Origin: a virus
Strand: one strand, 5' to 3'
Length of the DNA stretch: 5,664 nt
Virus record (IMG/VR): IMGVR_UViG_3300045988_001410
Coordinates: 1-5,664 of that record
Shown in pieces: positions 1-5,664 of the stretch. The first letter of the stretch is position 1. The number at the start of each line of letters is the position of its first letter. The notes under the pieces were generated by a model. That model did not search any database. It had not been told where the DNA came from and saw only the letters and a list, made by a program, of their open reading frames with translations. The position numbers and the translations under genes were made by a program.

Positions 1-55
1 TGCCATCCATATAGAATCATGTGGTAATGTGGCCGTGCTGTCTGTTCTCCGTATT
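1..55. repeat. Terminal direct repeat, 55 nt, identical to 5610..5664. It is the overlap of a circular assembly, giving a genome unit of 5609 nt.
   Basis: By direct comparison, tgccatccatatagaatcatgtggtaatgtggccgtgctgtctgttctccgtatt occurs at both ends of the window. The rep reading frame is continuous across the implied junction. Confidence 0.95.
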
Positions 56-386
56 CTCCTGCTACAAAATAGCGTAATTTGCCCCTATAAGCCTTTCTGA
101 GGCGTTTTAAGAATTTTTGAACGTCAGTATATAGTAACGTTTGAACGCTTTCAGGGCGCTTCTCTCCCGGCTTCCAGACGTATTGTACTTTTCGCATGAT
201 TTCGCCTGTGTTTACTATCATGCCTGGCACATGGTCATCGTCATAGGTTAGTGTTATAAACCAAACTTCTTCTCTTGGATAGTCTCGTGCTTCTAATTCT
301 ATTCGTGTTGTCCAGTCTTCCCTTTGTCTAATTCTGCATCCGATGCATTGCCCGCATGGTATCAACATGACATCTTTTCTATACAT
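1..386 (-). CDS. VP4: Replication initiator protein VP4 (HUH rolling-circle endonuclease), N-terminal 128 codons. It continues across the circular junction into 5609..5099, for 298 aa in total.
   Basis: Hand translation from the ATG at 386..384 gives MYRKDVMLIPCGQCIGCRIRQREDWTTRIELEARDYPREEVWFITLTYDDDHVPGM...RYFVAGEYGEQTARPHYHMILYGW. It carries PCGxCxxCR, the FITLTY motif 1 and the HYH (HUH) motif at 21..29. The frame matches the tracked ORF 5099..5629. No clear SD precedes 386, and an alternative ATG lies at 368. Confidence 0.9.
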   Translation of the reverse strand, partial: MYRKDVMLIPCGQCIGCRIRQREDWTTRIELEARDYPREEVWFITLTYDDDHVPGMIVNTGEIMRKVQYVWKPGEKRPESVQTLLYTDVQKFLKRLRKAYRGKLRYFVAGEYGEQTARPHYHMILYGW

Positions 387-407
387 CAAATTTTCATACT
401 TTAGCTG

Positions 408-458
408 TTGCCCGCTTATTTCAGAAAAGCGGGCAAGTGAATACACCCGCCCGCTTAT
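408..458 (-). promoter_or_regulatory. Three-part repeat able to form two mutually exclusive hairpins in the VP2-VP4 intergenic space. It is a possible weak terminator or attenuator, or an ssDNA structure.
   Basis: gcccgcttat occurs at 410..419 and 449..458, with an inverted copy aagcgggc at 427..434. Pairing option 1 is 408..417 with 427..436 (10 bp, 9-nt loop). Pairing option 2 is 427..434 with 449..456 (8 bp, 14-nt loop). In minus-strand RNA, option 2 is followed by UUCU, giving GCCCGCUUUUCU. Confidence 0.45.
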
Positions 459-505
459 GTCTTTATTTTCTGGGTTGTACAGCCTTATTAACGGTTTGTA
501 ACAAC

Positions 506-1375
506 TCATTTCAAATAATCGCCTGGCTTTCTCTTTTCTCCGTATGCTCCAGTTTTGTCTTGTGGCTTCATGCTTCTGCTCTGTCCTGCGCCTTGGCTTT
601 TTTCTGGCTTTGTTGTTGCTTTTTCGATTGCTTTGCTTGTGTCGTTTCCGACTTCTGTAAGTGCTTTTTGCAGTCCGTATGGCGTCATGTGTGTTGAGCT
701 TAGCATCTGCTGCCAGCTCTCTGCAGCATTGTACCAGTCACTTTTGCTCCAGCTTGAACTAGAGTATGCGTTTGGTACAAATCCTCCGCTTCGGCTAACT
801 CCTAGTGCGCTGCTGCTTGCAAGTCCCATACTTGCACCGCTGATTGTGCCGGCGCTTCCGCCCGGTGTGCTTGCTCCCCCATTTGAGAATGCTAGGATAG
901 GGTTAAGCCCCGCTTTTCGCATGTCCTCAACGGCTCGCTGGTATGCTGTGTTTGACATGTGTTCCTGCCATTCACGGTTTGCTAGTGCTTCTGCACTGTT
1001 GTAGTTCATTGCTACGCTGTTTTCAATGTGGTTGTATACGCCTTGCATGATTGCTTGTAAGGTGTTGTAACCCATTTGTTTAAGCATGCTTTGACTGTTG
1101 TATTTACCTTGCATGGCTGCTTCTTGCCCTTGGTATGCGTATGCCTGTTTTAGCCAGTCGTTGACCTGTTGCACGTTTGTGCCGGCTTGACTTCCGCTTT
1201 CCGAGTGTCCGCCTCCTTGGCTTGTGCTGCCTCCGCTGCTTTGGCTATTGCCTGTCTGTCCCCATCCGCCAAACGCTCCGGCTACGTTTTTAGCTGCTCC
1301 TGCAACAGTTCCGATTGTGTTTGCTACGTTTCCCGCTACGTTTAGCGCTGTTAAGAATCTTGATAATGCGCCCAT
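506..1375 (-). CDS. VP2: DNA pilot / minor capsid protein VP2 (289 aa)
   Basis: The tracked ORF lies immediately downstream of VP1. Gly/Ser/Ala-rich low-complexity arms flank a conserved-looking core, NREWQEHMSNTAYQRAVEDMRKAGLNPILAF, which is typical of gokushovirus VP2. Confidence 0.85.
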   Translation of the reverse strand: MGALSRFLTALNVAGNVANTIGTVAGAAKNVAGAFGGWGQTGNSQSSGGSTSQGGGHSESGSQAGTNVQQVNDWLKQAYAYQGQEAAMQGKYNSQSMLKQMGYNTLQAIMQGVYNHIENSVAMNYNSAEALANREWQEHMSNTAYQRAVEDMRKAGLNPILAFSNGGASTPGGSAGTISGASMGLASSSALGVSRSGGFVPNAYSSSSWSKSDWYNAAESWQQMLSSTHMTPYGLQKALTEVGNDTSKAIEKATTKPEKSQGAGQSRSMKPQDKTGAYGEKRKPGDYLK

Positions 1376-1403
1376 TTAAAAATAGCCCGGATTTCTCCGG
1401 GCT
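1376..1403 (-). terminator. Rho-independent-terminator-like hairpin between the VP1 stop and the VP2 start
   Basis: The minus strand reads TAA GAAAGGAGGA AGCCCGGA GAAA TCCGGGCT ATTTTTAA ATG. This is a perfect 8-bp GC-rich stem (1384..1391 with 1396..1403), a GAAA tetraloop and a 5-T run (1376..1383) that abuts the VP2 ATG at 1375. The SD AAGGAGGA (1404..1411) lies upstream of the hairpin. Confidence 0.65.
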
Positions 1404-1413
1404 TCCTCCTTTC

Positions 1414-3093
1414 TTACAGTTTGTACAAGCCCGGTACGCTGTACAACGGCATCCGTCTTGTGGTTGCGTTTGCTATGCGGATCGCACCGAAAAATTGTGG
1501 CTCATTCTGGACGATTAACGTTCTTGCGATTTCTTCTTTTCCTTCTTTCATCCAGCCTTGTGACAGTGTCGGTGCGTTTGAATATTTGTCTGCATAGTGC
1601 CAGAAGTCTAATGTTCCTGTTGCATTGCTTCGCATTTTGCCGGATACCCGATTAGGCTTCATTCGGTAGTCTGCCCATGCTTCTTGGTATCCGAACGTTT
1701 CCTCATCCGTTGCATCGCCGGTTAACATGATTTCCTTCTTTTTTACCGGTTGCTCGCCCAGATTTGCAAACTGCGGTACATAGTAGTCCAGTCTGTCTTT
1801 TCGACTCCAGAAACGCTCCAAGCCTTGCTGGTAACTGTGATTGTGTCGTACACAACATACACCGATTATAAAGCCGTGCTCTTCAAATGATTTGGTAAAG
1901 CTGCTTTCGTTGATTGGCGTCACTGACATTGCGCCGGTTTCACCGATAGGCGTATCTTCTTGGCCCTGCTGTCCGCTTGTCTGTACAATCTGGTTGATAT
2001 TGATATGGTATCTGCCACCGCCAAGATATTCCGGCACTTGTACGGTTTTATCACTGATAACCACGTCCCACAGCGCCTGTACTTGTTCACGGTAACGGCT
2101 GCCACCTCTTGCCAGTGCTTCGTAGTATTGCTGTACTGCTACGGCTTTACGTAAGTCGTTGATGGTTGCTGCAGTTGTGTTGCTTAGGTTTGCGCCTAAA
2201 TAAGCCGTGTCGTCTACTTGTGCTGACGAGCTTGCGCTGCCTACTAATAGCCCATATCCTTTGTATTTTTCGTTTTGACTGTTTCCGATATGTGGCGCAA
2301 GTGCGTGTCCGCTTAGTGTCTGGTTCAAGAAGATTTCTTTGCGTCCCGTTGCCGTTTCAAACTCTTTTAGTGCTGTGTCTTTATACAATCCAACCGGTGC
2401 ATTACCAGTCAACGGCAGTGACGCTTCCGGCCCGCGCTGTGGATAAGGTAGGCAGCTTGTAAAGTAGTCGTGGAACTTATTTACAGGTAAGCATCGCCCA
2501 CCTGCAATTGCATTTTGCAGCATATCGTCAATATTTGCGCTTCTGTCTACGTAGGCTATGTCACTATCGTCTGTTTTGATTACTGCTGCGTTATCTACGT
2601 TTTCATCCCGGAAGTATTCGTTCCATATTTTTACGTATGCCCTGATAGGTAGTGCGTTGACACTGAAACTCTTTTTTACTTTTGTGGGCACTCCCATATA
2701 ATCTAGGATGCTTTCCTCTCTCGGTAGCCCTTCGTTTTCTGTGCCATTTATTTTAATTTCCGGCACTTTGTAATTTTTTACCGGCATCCATGGCTTATCT
2801 TCGACTTCTCCCATGAACTGTTTGAAATTATCCCACAGGATTCTGTTTGGACAGTAGAAGTAGTAGAAGTCGATGAATGCATCGTCGAAAACAGGATACT
2901 TTGGCGTCGTCATTCGGATGATTGCTGCTGTATTTACGTTGAATGTATCGCCTGGCAATACCTCGTCAACATAGAATGGAATCAGTTTGCCGGAATCGAA
3001 TGTCGTGAGAATTGTCTGGTCACGGTTGAATCGTGTTCGGCTTGCTTTCATTTCTGGAATTTGGTTGAAGTGCCGTTCATTGTTTCGGTTCAC
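1414..3093 (-). CDS. VP1: Major capsid protein VP1 (F-like jelly-roll capsid, 559 aa), with a GTG start
   Basis: This is the largest ORF. Its N-terminus, FNQIPEMKASRTRFNRDQTILTTFDSGKLIPFYVDEVLPGDTF, is characteristic of Microviridae capsid proteins. The start codon is GTG (complement of cac at 3091..3093), preceded by AAAGGAGGAAGAAAA. It overlaps the VP3 stop as GTGA. Confidence 0.93.
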   Translation of the reverse strand: MNRNNERHFNQIPEMKASRTRFNRDQTILTTFDSGKLIPFYVDEVLPGDTFNVNTAAIIRMTTPKYPVFDDAFIDFYYFYCPNRILWDNFKQFMGEVEDKPWMPVKNYKVPEIKINGTENEGLPREESILDYMGVPTKVKKSFSVNALPIRAYVKIWNEYFRDENVDNAAVIKTDDSDIAYVDRSANIDDMLQNAIAGGRCLPVNKFHDYFTSCLPYPQRGPEASLPLTGNAPVGLYKDTALKEFETATGRKEIFLNQTLSGHALAPHIGNSQNEKYKGYGLLVGSASSSAQVDDTAYLGANLSNTTAATINDLRKAVAVQQYYEALARGGSRYREQVQALWDVVISDKTVQVPEYLGGGRYHININQIVQTSGQQGQEDTPIGETGAMSVTPINESSFTKSFEEHGFIIGVCCVRHNHSYQQGLERFWSRKDRLDYYVPQFANLGEQPVKKKEIMLTGDATDEETFGYQEAWADYRMKPNRVSGKMRSNATGTLDFWHYADKYSNAPTLSQGWMKEGKEEIARTLIVQNEPQFFGAIRIANATTRRMPLYSVPGLYKL

Positions 3094-3488
3094 TTTTCTT
3101 CCTCCTTTGCTTTAGGTTCTATTGCTGGTTCTTCTTTTGCTGCTTTCTGCAGTTCTTCCAGCTTCATGGCGTTTGCCTGTGCTGTTGCAATCATGCGATG
3201 ATATTCGTGAATGTTCTGCGGAAATTCGGTGATATCAACTTCTGTTCCTTCCAGTGCTCCCTGTGACAGACTTTTCAGAAATTGCGGGTCAAAGCTCGCT
3301 TTTCTTACAATGTTTTTGATATCGCATTCGTCTGAATAGCTTTCGATTTCCTGTTGGATGTCGATTGGTTCGGTTTCTTGTAGCACTTCTTCGTTTTTCT
3401 CGTTTTTTGTCCAGACGTATTGTTTTCGGAGTGTATCTCCTGATGCCGAAAAGAAGGGCTCTCGCCCTTCTTCGTATCGTTTATTCAT
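3090..3488 (-). CDS. VP3: Internal scaffolding protein VP3 (132 aa from the ATG at 3488; the track extends it to 3542)
   Basis: It lies directly upstream of VP1. It is acidic, with the motif SYSDECDIKNIVRKASFDPQFL, which resembles the ECDINNIV block of gokushovirus VP3. The ATG at 3488 has a GGGAGGG SD 9 nt upstream and overlaps the VP5 stop as ATGAATAA. The ATG at 3542 has no SD. Confidence 0.8.
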   Translation of the reverse strand: MNKRYEEGREPFFSASGDTLRKQYVWTKNEKNEEVLQETEPIDIQQEIESYSDECDIKNIVRKASFDPQFLKSLSQGALEGTEVDITEFPQNIHEYHRMIATAQANAMKLEELQKAAKEEPAIEPKAKEEEK

Positions 3489-3720
3489 GTGGCTTGCCCT
3501 CCCAAATTTTCTCTTTCCAGTTCTGGAAAAGTCCCGTCTCATCTTCGAATTCTGCCAGTTTGTAACCTGTGTAGTCCTGCGGACTCTGCCCGATGAAGGT
3601 CTTTTCGTCCTTTGCCATTACGTTGCACATACGTGCGAACGTTGCATCGTTTTTGCTTTCGCCTACCCATGCATAGCATTTTGCTACATCGTCCCAGATG
3701 CCATAATAGTTGTGTTTCAT
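3481..3720 (-). CDS. VP5: VP5-like non-structural protein (79 aa)
   Basis: The pattern MKHNYYGIWDDVAKCYAWVGES..ATFARMC....PQDYTGYKLAEFEDETGLF matches my recollection of gokushovirus VP5 (N-terminal YD.ka..f, then P.D..L..iG.fDd.tG). The SD AAAGGAA lies 8 nt upstream. Confidence 0.7.
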   Translation of the reverse strand: MKHNYYGIWDDVAKCYAWVGESKNDATFARMCNVMAKDEKTFIGQSPQDYTGYKLAEFEDETGLFQNWKEKIWEGKPHE

Positions 3721-3737
3721 TGTTTTGATTCCTTTCT

Positions 3738-3839
3738 TTACATCCGGATTCCACCGCGCATAGGTTTCTGACTGAGGTTGATAGTTTTGGTCTTTCGTGC
3801 GGTTACGTTGAACATACGGCGGTCTTTTGTACCGTTCAT
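3738..3839 (-). CDS. Small, highly basic DNA-binding/packaging protein, J-like / gokushovirus ORF8(VP8)-like (33 aa). It is not in the supplied ORF track.
   Basis: Hand translation gives MNGTKDRRMFNVTARKTKTINLSQKPMRGGIRM*, with 9 K/R against 1 acidic residue. The C-terminal PMRGGIRM resembles the RGGxR(F/L) ends I recall for SpV4 and Chlamydia-phage ORF8. It starts 4 nt after the upstream stop, and its own stop is followed directly by the VP5 SD. No strong SD of its own. Confidence 0.6.
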   Translation of the reverse strand: MNGTKDRRMFNVTARKTKTINLSQKPMRGGIRM

Positions 3840-3843
3840 TTTC

Positions 3844-4068
3844 TTACGATATGCCATTATTGTTCTCCCTTTTCATTAATTCTAATTCGATGTTGTTTGC
3901 AAAGCTTTTCATTTGCCAAATTTCGTCTATTAGCCTTTTAGCATCTTCGATTTTTGACACTTTTTTAATCATTTTGTAACTTCCATCAATTTCTTTGTAT
4001 TTTCGTTCGAGTAGAATCTCTAGTGCTTCTGTGGTCTGGTCTCTTACGTTCCATGTTTTGTGCATCAT
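3844..4068 (-). CDS. Hypothetical protein, 74 aa, predicted helical and charged, with no TM segment
   Basis: The tracked ORF has the SD AAGGAG 6 nt upstream of its ATG, embedded in the end of the preceding ORF (GAAAAGGAGTAAACCATGATG). I recognise no motif. Confidence 0.6.
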   Translation of the reverse strand: MMHKTWNVRDQTTEALEILLERKYKEIDGSYKMIKKVSKIEDAKRLIDEIWQMKSFANNIELELMKRENNNGIS

Positions 4069-4071
4069 GGT

Positions 4072-4194
4072 TTACTCCTTTTCGCTTTCGTTGATGCTAT
4101 CATGCAGTGCATGATAGATTTCGTCAAGCTTTTCGAGAATCTGCATCATAATCCGGATTGCCTGCTTGACGTCTTTAATAGAAATCAGTGCCAT
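4072..4194 (-). CDS. Hypothetical small protein, 40 aa (MALISIKDVKQAIRIMMQILEKLDEIYHALHDSINESEKE). The tracked 71-aa form starts at 4287, inside the peptidase gene.
   Basis: The ATG at 4194..4192 lies 1 nt after the peptidase TAA (4196..4198) and is preceded by AAGGGGG. The longer start at 4287 has no SD and would overlap the peptidase by 92 nt. Confidence 0.45.
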   Translation of the reverse strand: MALISIKDVKQAIRIMMQILEKLDEIYHALHDSINESEKE

Positions 4195-4195
4195 T

Positions 4196-4588
4196 TTATA
4201 CCCCCTTTCTATATTTGCTGGTTCGTACATCGAAGTGTACCCAACTTCTGTATACGATAATGCCACATTCATCCGGTACAATTTCATTCAGTATGTTGGC
4301 TATCTGTTTCGGTGTCATTCCATTTATTCGGATGTCTGCTGCCATACCGCGCATGTGGTAGCTATATTTTGCTCCATTACATTTTTTGTTCCACTCCGGT
4401 GTTCTGTATCCGCTGGTGATAATTACCGGTTTTCCTAGTTTGCATCTTAGGATGTCCAGAACGGTATATAAGTAGTCGTCTATGAACACTACTGGACTTC
4501 CGTCTTTGCAAGCAAATTCTTTTACTTTGAAGTGTTTTGCAAGTTGTATATTTCCGTCAGTTTCTACAATGTAGCTTTTAATGCTCAT
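4196..4588 (-). CDS. Zinc D-Ala-D-Ala-carboxypeptidase-fold peptidase, M15 family (M15A / Peptidase_M15_3-like), a putative peptidoglycan hydrolase or lysin (130 aa)
   Basis: The sequence ...FKVKEFACKDGS...VIITSGYRTPEWNKKCNGAKYSYHMRGMAADI...WVHFDVR fits SGYR, the SxHxxGxAxD zinc-binding block and the distal H.D. The ATG at 4588 has the SD GAGGT 7 nt upstream. The tracked TTG at 4642 is part of the promoter -35 hexamer. Confidence 0.85.
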   Translation of the reverse strand: MSIKSYIVETDGNIQLAKHFKVKEFACKDGSPVVFIDDYLYTVLDILRCKLGKPVIITSGYRTPEWNKKCNGAKYSYHMRGMAADIRINGMTPKQIANILNEIVPDECGIIVYRSWVHFDVRTSKYRKGV

Positions 4589-4613
4589 GGCCGTTACCTC
4601 ACTTTTTGTTTTG

Positions 4614-4660
4614 ATAATATCATTTTTTTTGTCGCTTGTCAATTGTTTTTTGTTTTGAAT
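4614..4660 (-). promoter_or_regulatory. Near-consensus sigma70-type promoter (UP-like A-tract, -35, extended -10) driving the peptidase and downstream genes
   Basis: The minus strand reads ATTCAAAACAAAAAACAA TTGACA AGCGACAAAAAAAATGA TATTAT CAAAACAAAAAGTGAGGTAACGGCC ATG. The -35 TTGACA is at 4642..4637, the spacer is 17 nt, the extended TG is at 4622..4621, and the -10 TATTAT is at 4619..4614. Confidence 0.75.
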
Positions 4661-4674
4661 GGCGCTTTAGCGCC
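4661..4674. repeat. Short hairpin ggcgc-ttta-gcgcc, the first copy of the 10-mer CGCTTTAGCG
   Basis: A 5-bp stem with a 4-nt loop. The 10-mer cgctttagcg (4663..4672) recurs at 4868..4877. Confidence 0.6.
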
Positions 4675-4733
4675 TTGCCGTGCGTAGCGTATGCGGAGCT
4701 CGGCCTATCCATTCCTTGTAAGCGCTGTGCGCG

Positions 4734-4908
4734 TTTTCAACACTTTCAACACTTTCAACAGGTTTTCCACAAAATGTTGCACAATGATTTTCGTCATTTT
4801 GACAGACTTTCAACAATTCAACAAGTTTTTAACAAAACTTTTAACAGTGATTTTCTTCTTTTATTTACGCTTTAGCGTTAAATTTTAGCACTTTTCAACT
4901 TTTCCACA
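4734..4908. repeat. Array of about 12 degenerate 8-9-bp repeats (T-tract + CAACA/TAACA/CCACA/TGACA), including a 3x tandem 9-mer. Candidate iterons and/or intrinsically curved DNA.
   Basis: Copies: TTTTCAACA 4734, CTTTCAACA 4743, 4752 and 4807, TTTTCCACA 4763 and 4900, (weak) GTTGCACA 4776, ATTTTGACA 4796, ATTCAACA 4816, TTTTTAACA 4826, CTTTTAACA 4838, CTTTTCAAC 4891. Spacings between adjacent copies within each cluster are 9-13 bp; the clusters (4734..4783, 4796..4846, 4891..4908) are separated by longer gaps. Confidence 0.8.
4867..4878. repeat. Second CGCTTTAGCG hairpin (acgc-ttta-gcgt)
   Basis: The same 10-mer as 4663..4672. The two copies bracket the main block of the repeat array. Confidence 0.55.
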
Positions 4909-4943
4909 GCCTCTACTACTACTCCTACAACAAGTTAATATTA

Positions 4944-4990
4944 TATCGCGCGTGCGCGCGTGCGCGCTATCGCGCGTGCGTGCTATCGCG
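4944..4990. repeat. CpG-rich alternating pyrimidine-purine (CG/TG) tract punctuated by three TATCGCG units
   Basis: The tract reads tatcgcgcgtgcgcgcgtgcgcgc tatcgcgcgtgcgtgc tatcgcg. tatcgcgcgtgcg is repeated exactly at 4944..4956 and 4968..4980, with a third tatcgcg at 4984..4990. Uninterrupted Py-Pu alternation runs over 4947..4967 and 4971..4983. Confidence 0.85.
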
Positions 4991-5045
4991 AATTAGATTA
5001 TTTGATAGACTGGATAGTGTGATACATGGAGACTTTAGACGACAT

Positions 5046-5081
5046 CTAGCCCAGTTCCTTACTTGATAGGAACTGGGCTAG
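5046..5081. repeat. Perfect 14-bp inverted repeat with an 8-nt loop, 18 nt beyond the VP4 stop
   Basis: ctagcccagttcct (5046..5059), loop tacttgat (5060..5067), aggaactgggctag (5068..5081). No T-run follows on either strand. Confidence 0.9.
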
Positions 5082-5082
5082 G

Positions 5083-5108
5083 TGACACTATGACACTGTT
5101 AAAGTGTC
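5083..5108. repeat. GACACT repeats: two direct TGACACT copies plus one inverted copy forming a hairpin around the VP4 stop codon
   Basis: tgacact occurs at 5083..5089 and 5091..5097. gacact (5092..5097) pairs with agtgtc (5103..5108) across the loop gttaa, which contains the TAA complement (5099..5101). Confidence 0.7.
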
Positions 5109-5664
5109 CCCTTTTTTTTCATCTGCTTCTTTATCACCCTTTCTTTTGTTTTACATTGTTCTGCGAAGTCTGCGTTTTCATACTTTAGCCTGTTTTCTGC
5201 GATTGCAGCTGCCTGCCTGTTCTGTTTAATTCTCCATAACCTTTGTGGGTTTTCAGCTTCCATCATTTTTTCATAATAGCGTGGAATTTGTGCGCGTTTG
5301 CCGTTTGTGCATTGGATATACCCTTGTTTCCATATCTCTGCTTTGTGTTCTTGATAGTAGTGATCTCCTAAGCCTGGTTTAAGGCTCATACATGCGAATG
5401 GCTTTGTTTGTCCTAGTTCATAGTATTCGTTTGCTTTTGCTCCGTCTATCTCGTACATTTTTTTTGTTACATATCCTGCAACATATCTATATGTTGCGGG
5501 CACTGCTTGCGCTATCTGTATTTGACCCATGCCCCATAGGTTTTCTAGCCACTTACTTGTGAAGTATCCGTTGTGTTGTATCTTGTATAGGTGCTTTAGG
5601 TCTGTTGGTTGCCATCCATATAGAATCATGTGGTAATGTGGCCGTGCTGTCTGTTCTCCGTATT
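5099..5664 (-). CDS. VP4: Replication initiator protein VP4, C-terminal part. Positions 5610..5664 duplicate 1..55, and the true continuation of 1..386 is 5609..5099.
   Basis: The tracked ORF contains RYVAGYVTKK, with Tyr codons at 5485..5483 and 5473..5471. This is the YxxxY catalytic pair, as in phiX174 gpA YVAKYVNKK. It is preceded by HYHMILYGW, and the TAA stop is at 5099..5101. Confidence 0.92.
   Translation of the reverse strand, partial: YGEQTARPHYHMILYGWQPTDLKHLYKIQHNGYFTSKWLENLWGMGQIQIAQAVPATYRYVAGYVTKKMYEIDGAKANEYYELGQTKPFACMSLKPGLGDHYYQEHKAEIWKQGYIQCTNGKRAQIPRYYEKMMEAENPQRLWRIKQNRQAAAIAENRLKYENADFAEQCKTKERVIKKQMKKKGTL
5610..5664. repeat. Second copy of the 55-nt terminal repeat (see 1..55)
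   Basis: An exact match to 1..55. Confidence 0.95.

Follow-up and report, generated by a model that had tools for sequence, protein, structure and literature searches.

A conserved M15A-type peptidase, a candidate endolysin, in a clade of gut gokushoviruses with no recognizable holin

In 2012, Roux et al. reported that 11 human-associated Microviridae, including five gokushoviruses, encode M15_3 peptidases, showed that these genes had been acquired horizontally, with four of the gokushovirus enzymes grouping with Faecalibacterium, and proposed that they act as endolysins (PMC3394797). Peptidases were later listed by Kirchberger et al. (2022) among the accessory lysis genes that recur in microviruses and recombine from one microvirus family to another (PMC9239249). 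Here, we analyze a further member of this gene class, known in microviruses since 2012, which is encoded as a 130-amino-acid protein in the IMG/VR virus record IMGVR_UViG_3300045988_001410 (positions 1 to 5,664; this whole stretch of 5,664 nucleotides [nt] is referred to as the window). The nearest GenBank genomes come from human and pig feces, with KX513868 matching at 83% DNA identity across 95% of the genome and KT264791 at 87% across 82%. Some of these relatives are already labeled accordingly (“peptidase M15” in KX513868 and “similar to peptidase” in MG945447). The M15_3 peptidases of the gut Gokushovirinae KX513868, KT264791, and MG945447 are 65 to 86% identical to the window peptidase, in genomes that are 83 to 87% identical in DNA; like it, they are affiliated with Faecalibacterium/Clostridia enzymes, have been proposed to act as endolysins, and are not accompanied by a holin, and we see no substantive difference between them. 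The presence of the gene has been textbook-level knowledge for the field since 2012, and the question of membrane passage was already implicit. What is new here, and sharpens that question, is the fixation of the gene in a set of genomes defined by their capsid protein VP1 (42/42), the swapping of its alleles, and a scan of 69 genomes that found no holin.

Few phages of the mammalian gut are as abundant as the gokushoviruses. The clade studied here is a concrete handle on how they lyse their hosts, given a putative wall enzyme that is fixed, well conserved, and clearly under functional constraint, with no accompanying membrane protein in 69 genomes.

A sequence-only reading of the window had assigned the product to the M15A/Peptidase_M15_3 zinc peptidases on the basis of its SGYR, SYHMRGMAAD, and VHFD motifs, and profile searches bear this out. 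The motifs lie at residues 59 to 62, 76 to 85, and 117 to 120 (S59-G60-Y61-R62; S76-Y-H78-M-R-G81-M-A83-A-D85; V117-H118-F-D120), with H78, D85, and H118 as predicted zinc ligands (H-x6-D, with the distal H in WVH) and SGYR as the substrate motif. The Pfam model PF08291 (Peptidase_M15_3) matches at an E value of 4.9e-21 and 75.3 bits, well above the cut-off of 23.2, and is covered over its full length (positions 1 to 108 of 108). Further matches were obtained with PF05951 (E value of 1e-7) and with PHROG 894, annotated “endolysin” (E value of 1.5e-41). This profile-based assignment to M15A/Peptidase_M15_3 is far beyond chance. A test for MepK/YcbK (Peptidase_M15_2), a periplasmic L,D-endopeptidase, was negative, with 40.7 bits for NF053624 against an equivalog cut-off of 185 and an N terminus devoid of a twin-arginine motif. 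All 12 motif residues are invariant in the 77 of 77 clade sequences compared, and H78, D85, H118, W116, S59, and R62 are also invariant in a mixed alignment of 68 microviral and Clostridia sequences (A2), in which Clostridia-type homologues were added to the close relatives.

The fold was predicted from the same alignment. The A2 profile finds the Streptomyces albus G enzyme 1LBU at an E value of 2.9e-8, with an alignment that spans the SxHxxGxAAD metal motif, and an AlphaFold (AF2) model built from A2 reached a predicted local distance difference test score (pLDDT) of 97 and a predicted template modeling score (pTM) of 0.90. A first model, based on a shallow alignment of close relatives only, had a pLDDT of 72.8 and no significant PDB match and was discarded. 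When the final model was compared with the PDB using Foldseek, 1LBU ranked first, followed by Hedgehog N-domains, VanY, Ply500, ChiX, LysECD7, and the T5 endolysin, the top matches having probabilities of 0.9 to 1.0 and template modeling scores (TM-scores) of about 0.5. In BFVD, the top matches were the catalytic domains of tailed-phage “peptidases” of 341 to 349 amino acids (TM-score of 0.96 at 44% identity), and several peptidases of other microviruses also matched. Judging from this model, the peptidase has the LAS/Hedgehog-DD-peptidase fold. It is a basic (isoelectric point [pI] of 9.3), single-domain protein of 15 kDa.

The gene is shorter than its open reading frame (ORF). On the minus strand, the ORF runs from 4642 to 4196 and comprises 148 amino acids when counted from a TTG at 4642, the span that the sequence-only reading had given for the feature. 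The ORF is indeed present, but only 4196 to 4588 is coding: the 130-amino-acid product starts at the ATG at 4588, the TTG at 4642 begins the −35 hexamer of a promoter and is not a start codon, and 4589 to 4642 is noncoding. Tailed-phage homologues share the start residue of the window peptidase (MAIKAY versus MSIKSY). Some gene callers report a longer ORF of 148 to 200 amino acids, which we considered as a possible signal or extra domain and rejected, since it crosses the promoter and, in this window, a stop codon; the extension is an artifact of a frame that is merely open through the promoter region. The promoter itself (TTGACA-17 nt-TGaTATTAT) is of the sigma-70 type, matches 11 of 12 positions, has an extended −10 element, and is the top promoter-like site of the genome, in agreement with the earlier description of the peptidase as the first gene after a strong promoter. 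As a class, promoter-like sites are not enriched (12 observed versus 8.2 ± 3.4 in shuffled sequences). An identical or near-identical element lies 5′ of the peptidase gene in many relatives, sometimes with one extra small ORF in between. Purine-rich motifs of the Shine-Dalgarno type precede six of the nine genes in the window.

The sequence-only reading had described M15-like genes as seen only sporadically in metagenomic microviruses. Close relatives of the peptidase were found on 234 IMG/VR contigs, and 1,358 clusters of a large protein collection match it at E values of ≤1e-5; together with the 2012 survey by Roux et al., these counts do not support that claim. The best 120 of the 1,358 clusters are 78 to 92% identical and stem mostly from contigs of ∼5 to 6 kb or shorter fragments. 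Among the 80 closest VP1 relatives, which are 72 to 82% identical in VP1 and constitute the VP1-defined set, 76 carry an M15 peptidase, and the remaining four are contigs that are not complete; in this set, every one of the 42 genomes shown to be circular has the gene. In 15 of the 80, the peptidase is a divergent M15 allele of at least four types, 45 to 55% identical to the window enzyme (L177, L184, L191, L192, L195 to L198, L205 to L207, L210, L211, L214, and L219 in our genome numbering), even though VP1 of these genomes is 73 to 76% identical to that of the window. This pattern points to repeated replacement of the allele, or to its independent acquisition, within a single capsid lineage and suggests that the function was retained while the allele was swapped. 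The median ratio of nonsynonymous to synonymous substitution rates (dN/dS) over 2,896 pairs within the close set is 0.15, showing purifying selection, and the base composition of the gene is that of the rest of the genome. Given its fixation, selection, and matching composition, the gene is a fixed, selected component of the clade.

The closest tailed-phage homologues are the 137-amino-acid endolysins of the Faecalibacterium phages FP_Toutatis, FP_oengus, and Lelie, which are 43 to 45% identical to the window peptidase. In a scan of bacterial genomes with one genome per species, we found 419 homologous loci, of which the best 80 are 40 to 53% identical and belong almost exclusively to Clostridia (Oscillospiraceae, Acutalibacteraceae, Faecalibacterium, and Lachnospiraceae). 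Membrane proteins are common next to these homologues. In the Faecalibacterium phages, the endolysin gene is followed on its 3′ side by genes for a 131-amino-acid membrane protein (Kyte-Doolittle [KD] hydropathy of 2.59) and a 105-amino-acid XhlA-like “hemolysin,” with an annotated holin in oengus. By a crude hydropathy measure, a small transmembrane ORF abuts the homologue at 31 of 49 Clostridia loci, compared with 20 of 98 positions taken as controls at a distance of 2.6 kb. Sequence affinity thus points to the tailed-phage and prophage lysis cassettes of gut Clostridia as the donor lineage, and the transmembrane proteins beside these homologues, with none in the microvirus, suggest that the enzyme was taken without its holin. 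The Shine-Dalgarno usage, the extended −10 promoter, and the affinity to Clostridia would all fit a Firmicute host. A scan of the same 185,579 bacterial species genomes with VP1 returned no prophage or host match, and to our knowledge, gokushoviruses have so far not been grown on any Firmicute.

We found no route across the membrane in the protein itself, as the sequence-only reading had stated. The N terminus (MSIKSYIVETDGNIQLAKHF) is hydrophilic, the start is colinear with the cytoplasmic tailed-phage homologues, and no signal peptide, signal-arrest-release (SAR) segment, or transmembrane segment was detected in the peptidase, whose top 19-residue window reaches a KD value of only 1.05 and corresponds to an internal helix. 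The same holds for a holin, for which the earlier reading had likewise seen no candidate on the minus strand. No coding-strand ORF of ≥20 amino acids in the window reaches a KD value of 1.6. Among the 69 complete related genomes (48 from the peptidase-based set plus 21 from the VP1-based set), no coding-strand ORF of ≥25 amino acids does so, barring one mini-ORF, and none of the three coding-strand frames of these circular genomes contains an overprinted small transmembrane ORF of the phiX174 E type. The most hydrophobic coding-strand segment is the Gly/Ala-rich N terminus of the pilot protein VP2 (KD value of 1.12 in the window and up to 1.55 in relatives), making VP2 the sole candidate for a membrane-inserting protein of the virus.

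Two kinds of ORF were considered as holins and rejected. The mini-ORF mentioned above lies at 3251 to 3340 of L210 (IMGVR_UViG_3300045988_042857), a genome with a divergent M15 allele; it starts with GTG, encodes 29 amino acids with a hydrophobic core (KD value of 2.05), and is located in ∼100 nt of inserted sequence between VP5 and the J-like gene. This sole holin-like candidate of the 69 genomes was found in L210 only, plus a remnant in L198, and is not a clade-wide holin. Hydrophobic ORFs on the plus strand are compositional artifacts, since this strand is T rich and its ORFs all appear hydrophobic. The 90-amino-acid plus-strand ORF opposite the peptidase runs in the exact complement frame of the peptidase codons; breaks occur in 21 of the 81 relatives, and conservation is lower than for the sense protein. 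We also observed that the antisense ORFs at 4166 to 4438 and 3358 to 3771 (plus strand), which are read in the frames exactly complementary to the codons of the peptidase and VP5 and contain transmembrane-like stretches, stay open in 60 of 81 and 31 of 45 relatives, respectively, most likely due to the scarcity of TTA, CTA, and TCA codons in the sense genes. Such ORFs could mislead holin searches.

Taken as a whole, the evidence favors lysis over entry or another role. In the reading that we consider reasonably probable, the peptidase is a canonical cytoplasmic endolysin for progeny release that gains access to the wall by means of something other than a phage holin. The ancestor of this gut gokushovirus clade would have taken the peptidase from a tailed-phage or prophage lysis cassette of gut Clostridia and left the holin behind. 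The gene would be transcribed from the strongest promoter of the genome, as the first gene of an operon running into the structural genes, and would be translated from a good Shine-Dalgarno site, with the product building up in the cytoplasm. It would act, by cutting peptide bonds in peptidoglycan, only after the membrane has been breached or de-energized by a nonholin agent, for which candidates are VP2, a soluble gokushovirus lysis function shared with peptidase-less relatives, or a host route. The muralytic activity presumed here is supported by characterized enzymes, given that the M15A endolysins ST79, Spp64, and LysPM1 are lytic on permeabilized cells (PMC13461873) and that Gp7 of the microvirus Ebor (“Tainavirinae”) degrades peptidoglycan in zymograms (PMC11980548).

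Several points weigh against this reading. No transmembrane protein was found in the 69 complete genomes, except for the weakly hydrophobic VP2 N terminus and the L210 mini-ORF. A canonical endolysin without a holin is expected to stay trapped in the cytoplasm, as in S-minus mutants of lambda, and the proposed mechanism therefore needs an additional membrane-breaching step. More distant, peptidase-less gokushoviruses have no transmembrane segment in the ORFs listed between VP4 and VP5, and the subfamily must therefore have another lysis route, independent of membrane proteins. For gokushovirus M15 enzymes, we also know of no report of an activity, a cleaved bond, a host, or a lysis phenotype. 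The route of a signal-less endolysin to the wall would reveal either a new membrane-breaching function in a virus of five to nine genes or a new enzymatic block of wall synthesis. More specific versions, in which the clade lyses its host with an endolysin and no holin by an as yet undescribed route, with either the peptidase destroying cytoplasmic precursors or a structural protein such as VP2 forming the membrane lesion, are tentative, and we consider them rather doubtful.

The first of these ideas can be put as an enzymatic “amurin”: the peptidase would stay in the cytoplasm and hydrolyze UDP-MurNAc-peptides or the stem peptides of lipid II, and the starved growing cells would burst, in functional parallel to phiX174 E but by catalysis. 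Such a mechanism would explain why none of the 69 genomes shows a holin, a signal peptide, or a SAR segment, and it agrees with the best solved relative, 1LBU, being a D-Ala-D-Ala carboxypeptidase that acts at the pentapeptide end. The M15 enzymes VanX and VanXY work on cytoplasmic substrates, and single-protein lysis through a block of wall synthesis is a known strategy of small phages. We nevertheless regard this explanation as unlikely, because the peptidase is colinear with, and 43 to 53% identical to, tailed-phage and prophage enzymes whose location next to holin-like genes suggests that they are wall directed, and no sequence feature separates the microviral copies from these enzymes. 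Moreover, with the strongest promoter and a good ribosome-binding site, early toxicity would risk lysis before assembly, and an enzyme of this kind is not known as a lysis effector.

The neighborhood of the homologues also bears on a holin-independent export, in which a host route (nonclassical secretion or piggy-back on wall-polymer export) would carry the peptidase to the wall, where it would remain inactive until a late collapse of the membrane potential. Firmicute hosts, in which potential-gated, holin-independent endolysins are exemplified by pneumococcal and oenococcal phage systems, are likely given the Shine-Dalgarno motifs at six of nine genes, the extended −10 promoter, and the Clostridia donors, and the basic character of the peptidase would suit such a route. 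However, the protein has neither an N-terminal signal nor an extra domain, and tailed-phage homologues of the same length retain holin-like neighbors, making this explanation quite improbable.

We give still less credence to an entry enzyme, located in or on the virion and opening the wall locally at genome delivery. Traces of Ebor Gp7 were detected in purified virions, M15-type domains occur in tail-associated lysins, and the BFVD matches include Gp5-like and very long proteins; but the window peptidase is a free-standing 15-kDa protein with no fusion to VP1 or VP2, little room is left inside the T=1 capsid of gokushoviruses, the nearest relatives are found in lysis cassettes and not in structural modules, and gokushoviruses without the peptidase still infect their hosts. 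That the gene is a passenger or decaying acquisition with no role in the virus cycle, as its horizontal origin and its absence from more distant gokushoviruses could suggest, is effectively refuted by the low dN/dS, the catalytic residues being invariant in 77 of 77 sequences, the presence in every complete genome of the VP1-defined set, the genome-like base composition, and the tight size limits of a 5.6-kb genome.

Bases 1 to 55 and 5610 to 5664 of the window are identical, forming an exact terminal direct repeat of 55 nt, which shows that the window is a circular genome of 5,609 nt plus an assembly overlap. It is a complete gokushovirus genome, in which VP1, VP2, VP3, VP4, and VP5 were identified by Pfam and PHROG profiles (Table 1). 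All genes are on the minus strand. An Rfam scan of the whole window gave no match.

Table 1. Features of the window, with coordinates as positions in the 5,664-nt stretch
Feature	Position	Strand	Basis or remark
VP4 replication initiator	∼509 to 1, then 5664 to 5099	−	339 amino acids, crosses the circular junction
VP2 DNA pilot protein	506..1375	−	PHROG profile
VP1 capsid protein	1414..3093	−	Pfam Phage_F, E value of 1e-136
VP3 scaffold	3090..3542	−	
VP5	3481..3720	−	
J-like basic protein, 39 amino acids	3738..3857	−	
orf74, small hydrophilic coiled-coil-like protein, no transmembrane segment	3844..4068	−	ORF list, profile, and hydropathy scans
orf40, acidic helical protein, 40 amino acids	4072..4194	−	Conservation across relatives
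Coding sequence of the predicted M15A/Peptidase_M15_3 zinc peptidase, 130 amino acids, stop included	4196..4588	−	
Shine-Dalgarno motif GAGG	4597..4600	−	8 nt before the start codon at 4588
Sigma-70-type promoter TTGACA-17-TATTAT, TG extended −10	4614..4642	−	11/12 match
Long noncoding region between VP4 and the promoter	4643..5098	−	Repeats and hairpins

Two small proteins are encoded downstream of the peptidase, neither of which has a significant match in Pfam, PHROGs, or NCBIfam. The first, orf40 (MALISIKDVKQAIRIMMQILEKLDEIYHALHD...), starts 1 nt past the stop codon of the peptidase. Of 81 related genomes, 79 have a conserved orf40, with a length of 34 to 47 amino acids. It is acidic (pI of 5.2) and has no transmembrane segment, its homologues amount to about 20 small proteins among 1.8 billion representatives, and most GenBank records either omit its annotation or give a wrong one. 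A role as a peptidase-specific partner or chaperone was rejected, given that orf40 is also present in five peptidase-less gokushoviruses (MG945157, MG945423, KT264799, MG945136, and MG945391; VP1 45 to 50% identical) and in some cases does not adjoin the peptidase gene. Two of the peptidase-less genomes, L085 and L088 (MG945157, 1469 to 1645; MG945136, 1621 to 1797), contain a 58-amino-acid Cys-rich ORF (C-x3-C-x2-C...C) roughly at the position that the peptidase occupies in the clade.

The long noncoding region upstream of the promoter is rich in repeats and hairpins. It contains three units of the GTTGAAAGT type (4734 to 4757), a 46-nt direct repeat with copies 63 nt apart (4754 to 4799 and 4817 to 4862), a CG-rich tract with an 8-nt period (4944 to 4990), a 17-bp hairpin immediately after VP4 (5043 to 5084), and a GGCGC-TAAA-GCGCC hairpin directly upstream of the −35 element (about 4661 to 4674). 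In some divergent relatives, DNA conservation of this region is above that of the genes; positions 4649 to 4846 are 91% identical in MG945162, whose genes have no megablast-level match to the window. The region could serve as an origin, as a packaging signal, or as a regulatory element. Elsewhere on the minus strand, a strong terminator-like hairpin (1384 to 1403; 8-bp stem with six G-C pairs, followed by a T-run) separates the VP1 stop from the VP2 start and could attenuate expression of VP2 relative to the capsid protein.

Among the related contigs, L018 (IMGVR_UViG_3300045988_007630, 10.9 kb) contains two distinct VP1 genes, with 73% and 50% identity to that of the window, which points to a chimera or heterodimer of two microviruses and not to a prophage. 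Further over-length “microvirus” contigs, L195 (10.7 kb), L204, and L206, are possibly of the same type.

Like the window clade, phiX174 has no holin-endolysin pair, but its single lysis protein, E, is a small transmembrane inhibitor of MraY, is nonenzymatic, and is overprinted in another gene, with no such ORF in the window clade. Ebor Gp7 is likewise an accessory peptidoglycan hydrolase in a microvirus. It comes from a different microvirus lineage and, judged by its HHpred hit to 6SSC, may belong to a different enzyme family, and Ebor also encodes a predicted membrane protein of 45 amino acids, whereas the window clade is without one. The closest solved relative by both profile and fold is 1LBU, the zinc D-Ala-D-Ala carboxypeptidase of S. 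albus G and MEROPS M15A type enzyme (Foldseek probability of 1.00). It differs in being secreted and having 213 amino acids in two domains, and at an identity of ∼20 to 25% and a TM-score of 0.50, its bond specificity is not transferable to the window peptidase. More similar in architecture are LysPM1 of the Proteus phage Homer, the ST79 peptidase M15A, and Spp64, each of which, like the window enzyme, consists of one Peptidase_M15_3 domain of about 116 to 130 amino acids with the H...D...H zinc triad, the (W/F)xH motif, and a structure to which 1LBU is the closest relative (PMC13461873, PMC5025407); they differ in belonging to tailed phages of Gram-negative hosts with holin/spanin systems. 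Finally, in the Faecalibacterium tailed phages, the endolysin is followed by membrane proteins, of which the microvirus has none, but the endolysins of FP_Toutatis, FP_oengus, and Lelie have the same single-domain layout, N terminus, and motifs as the window peptidase.

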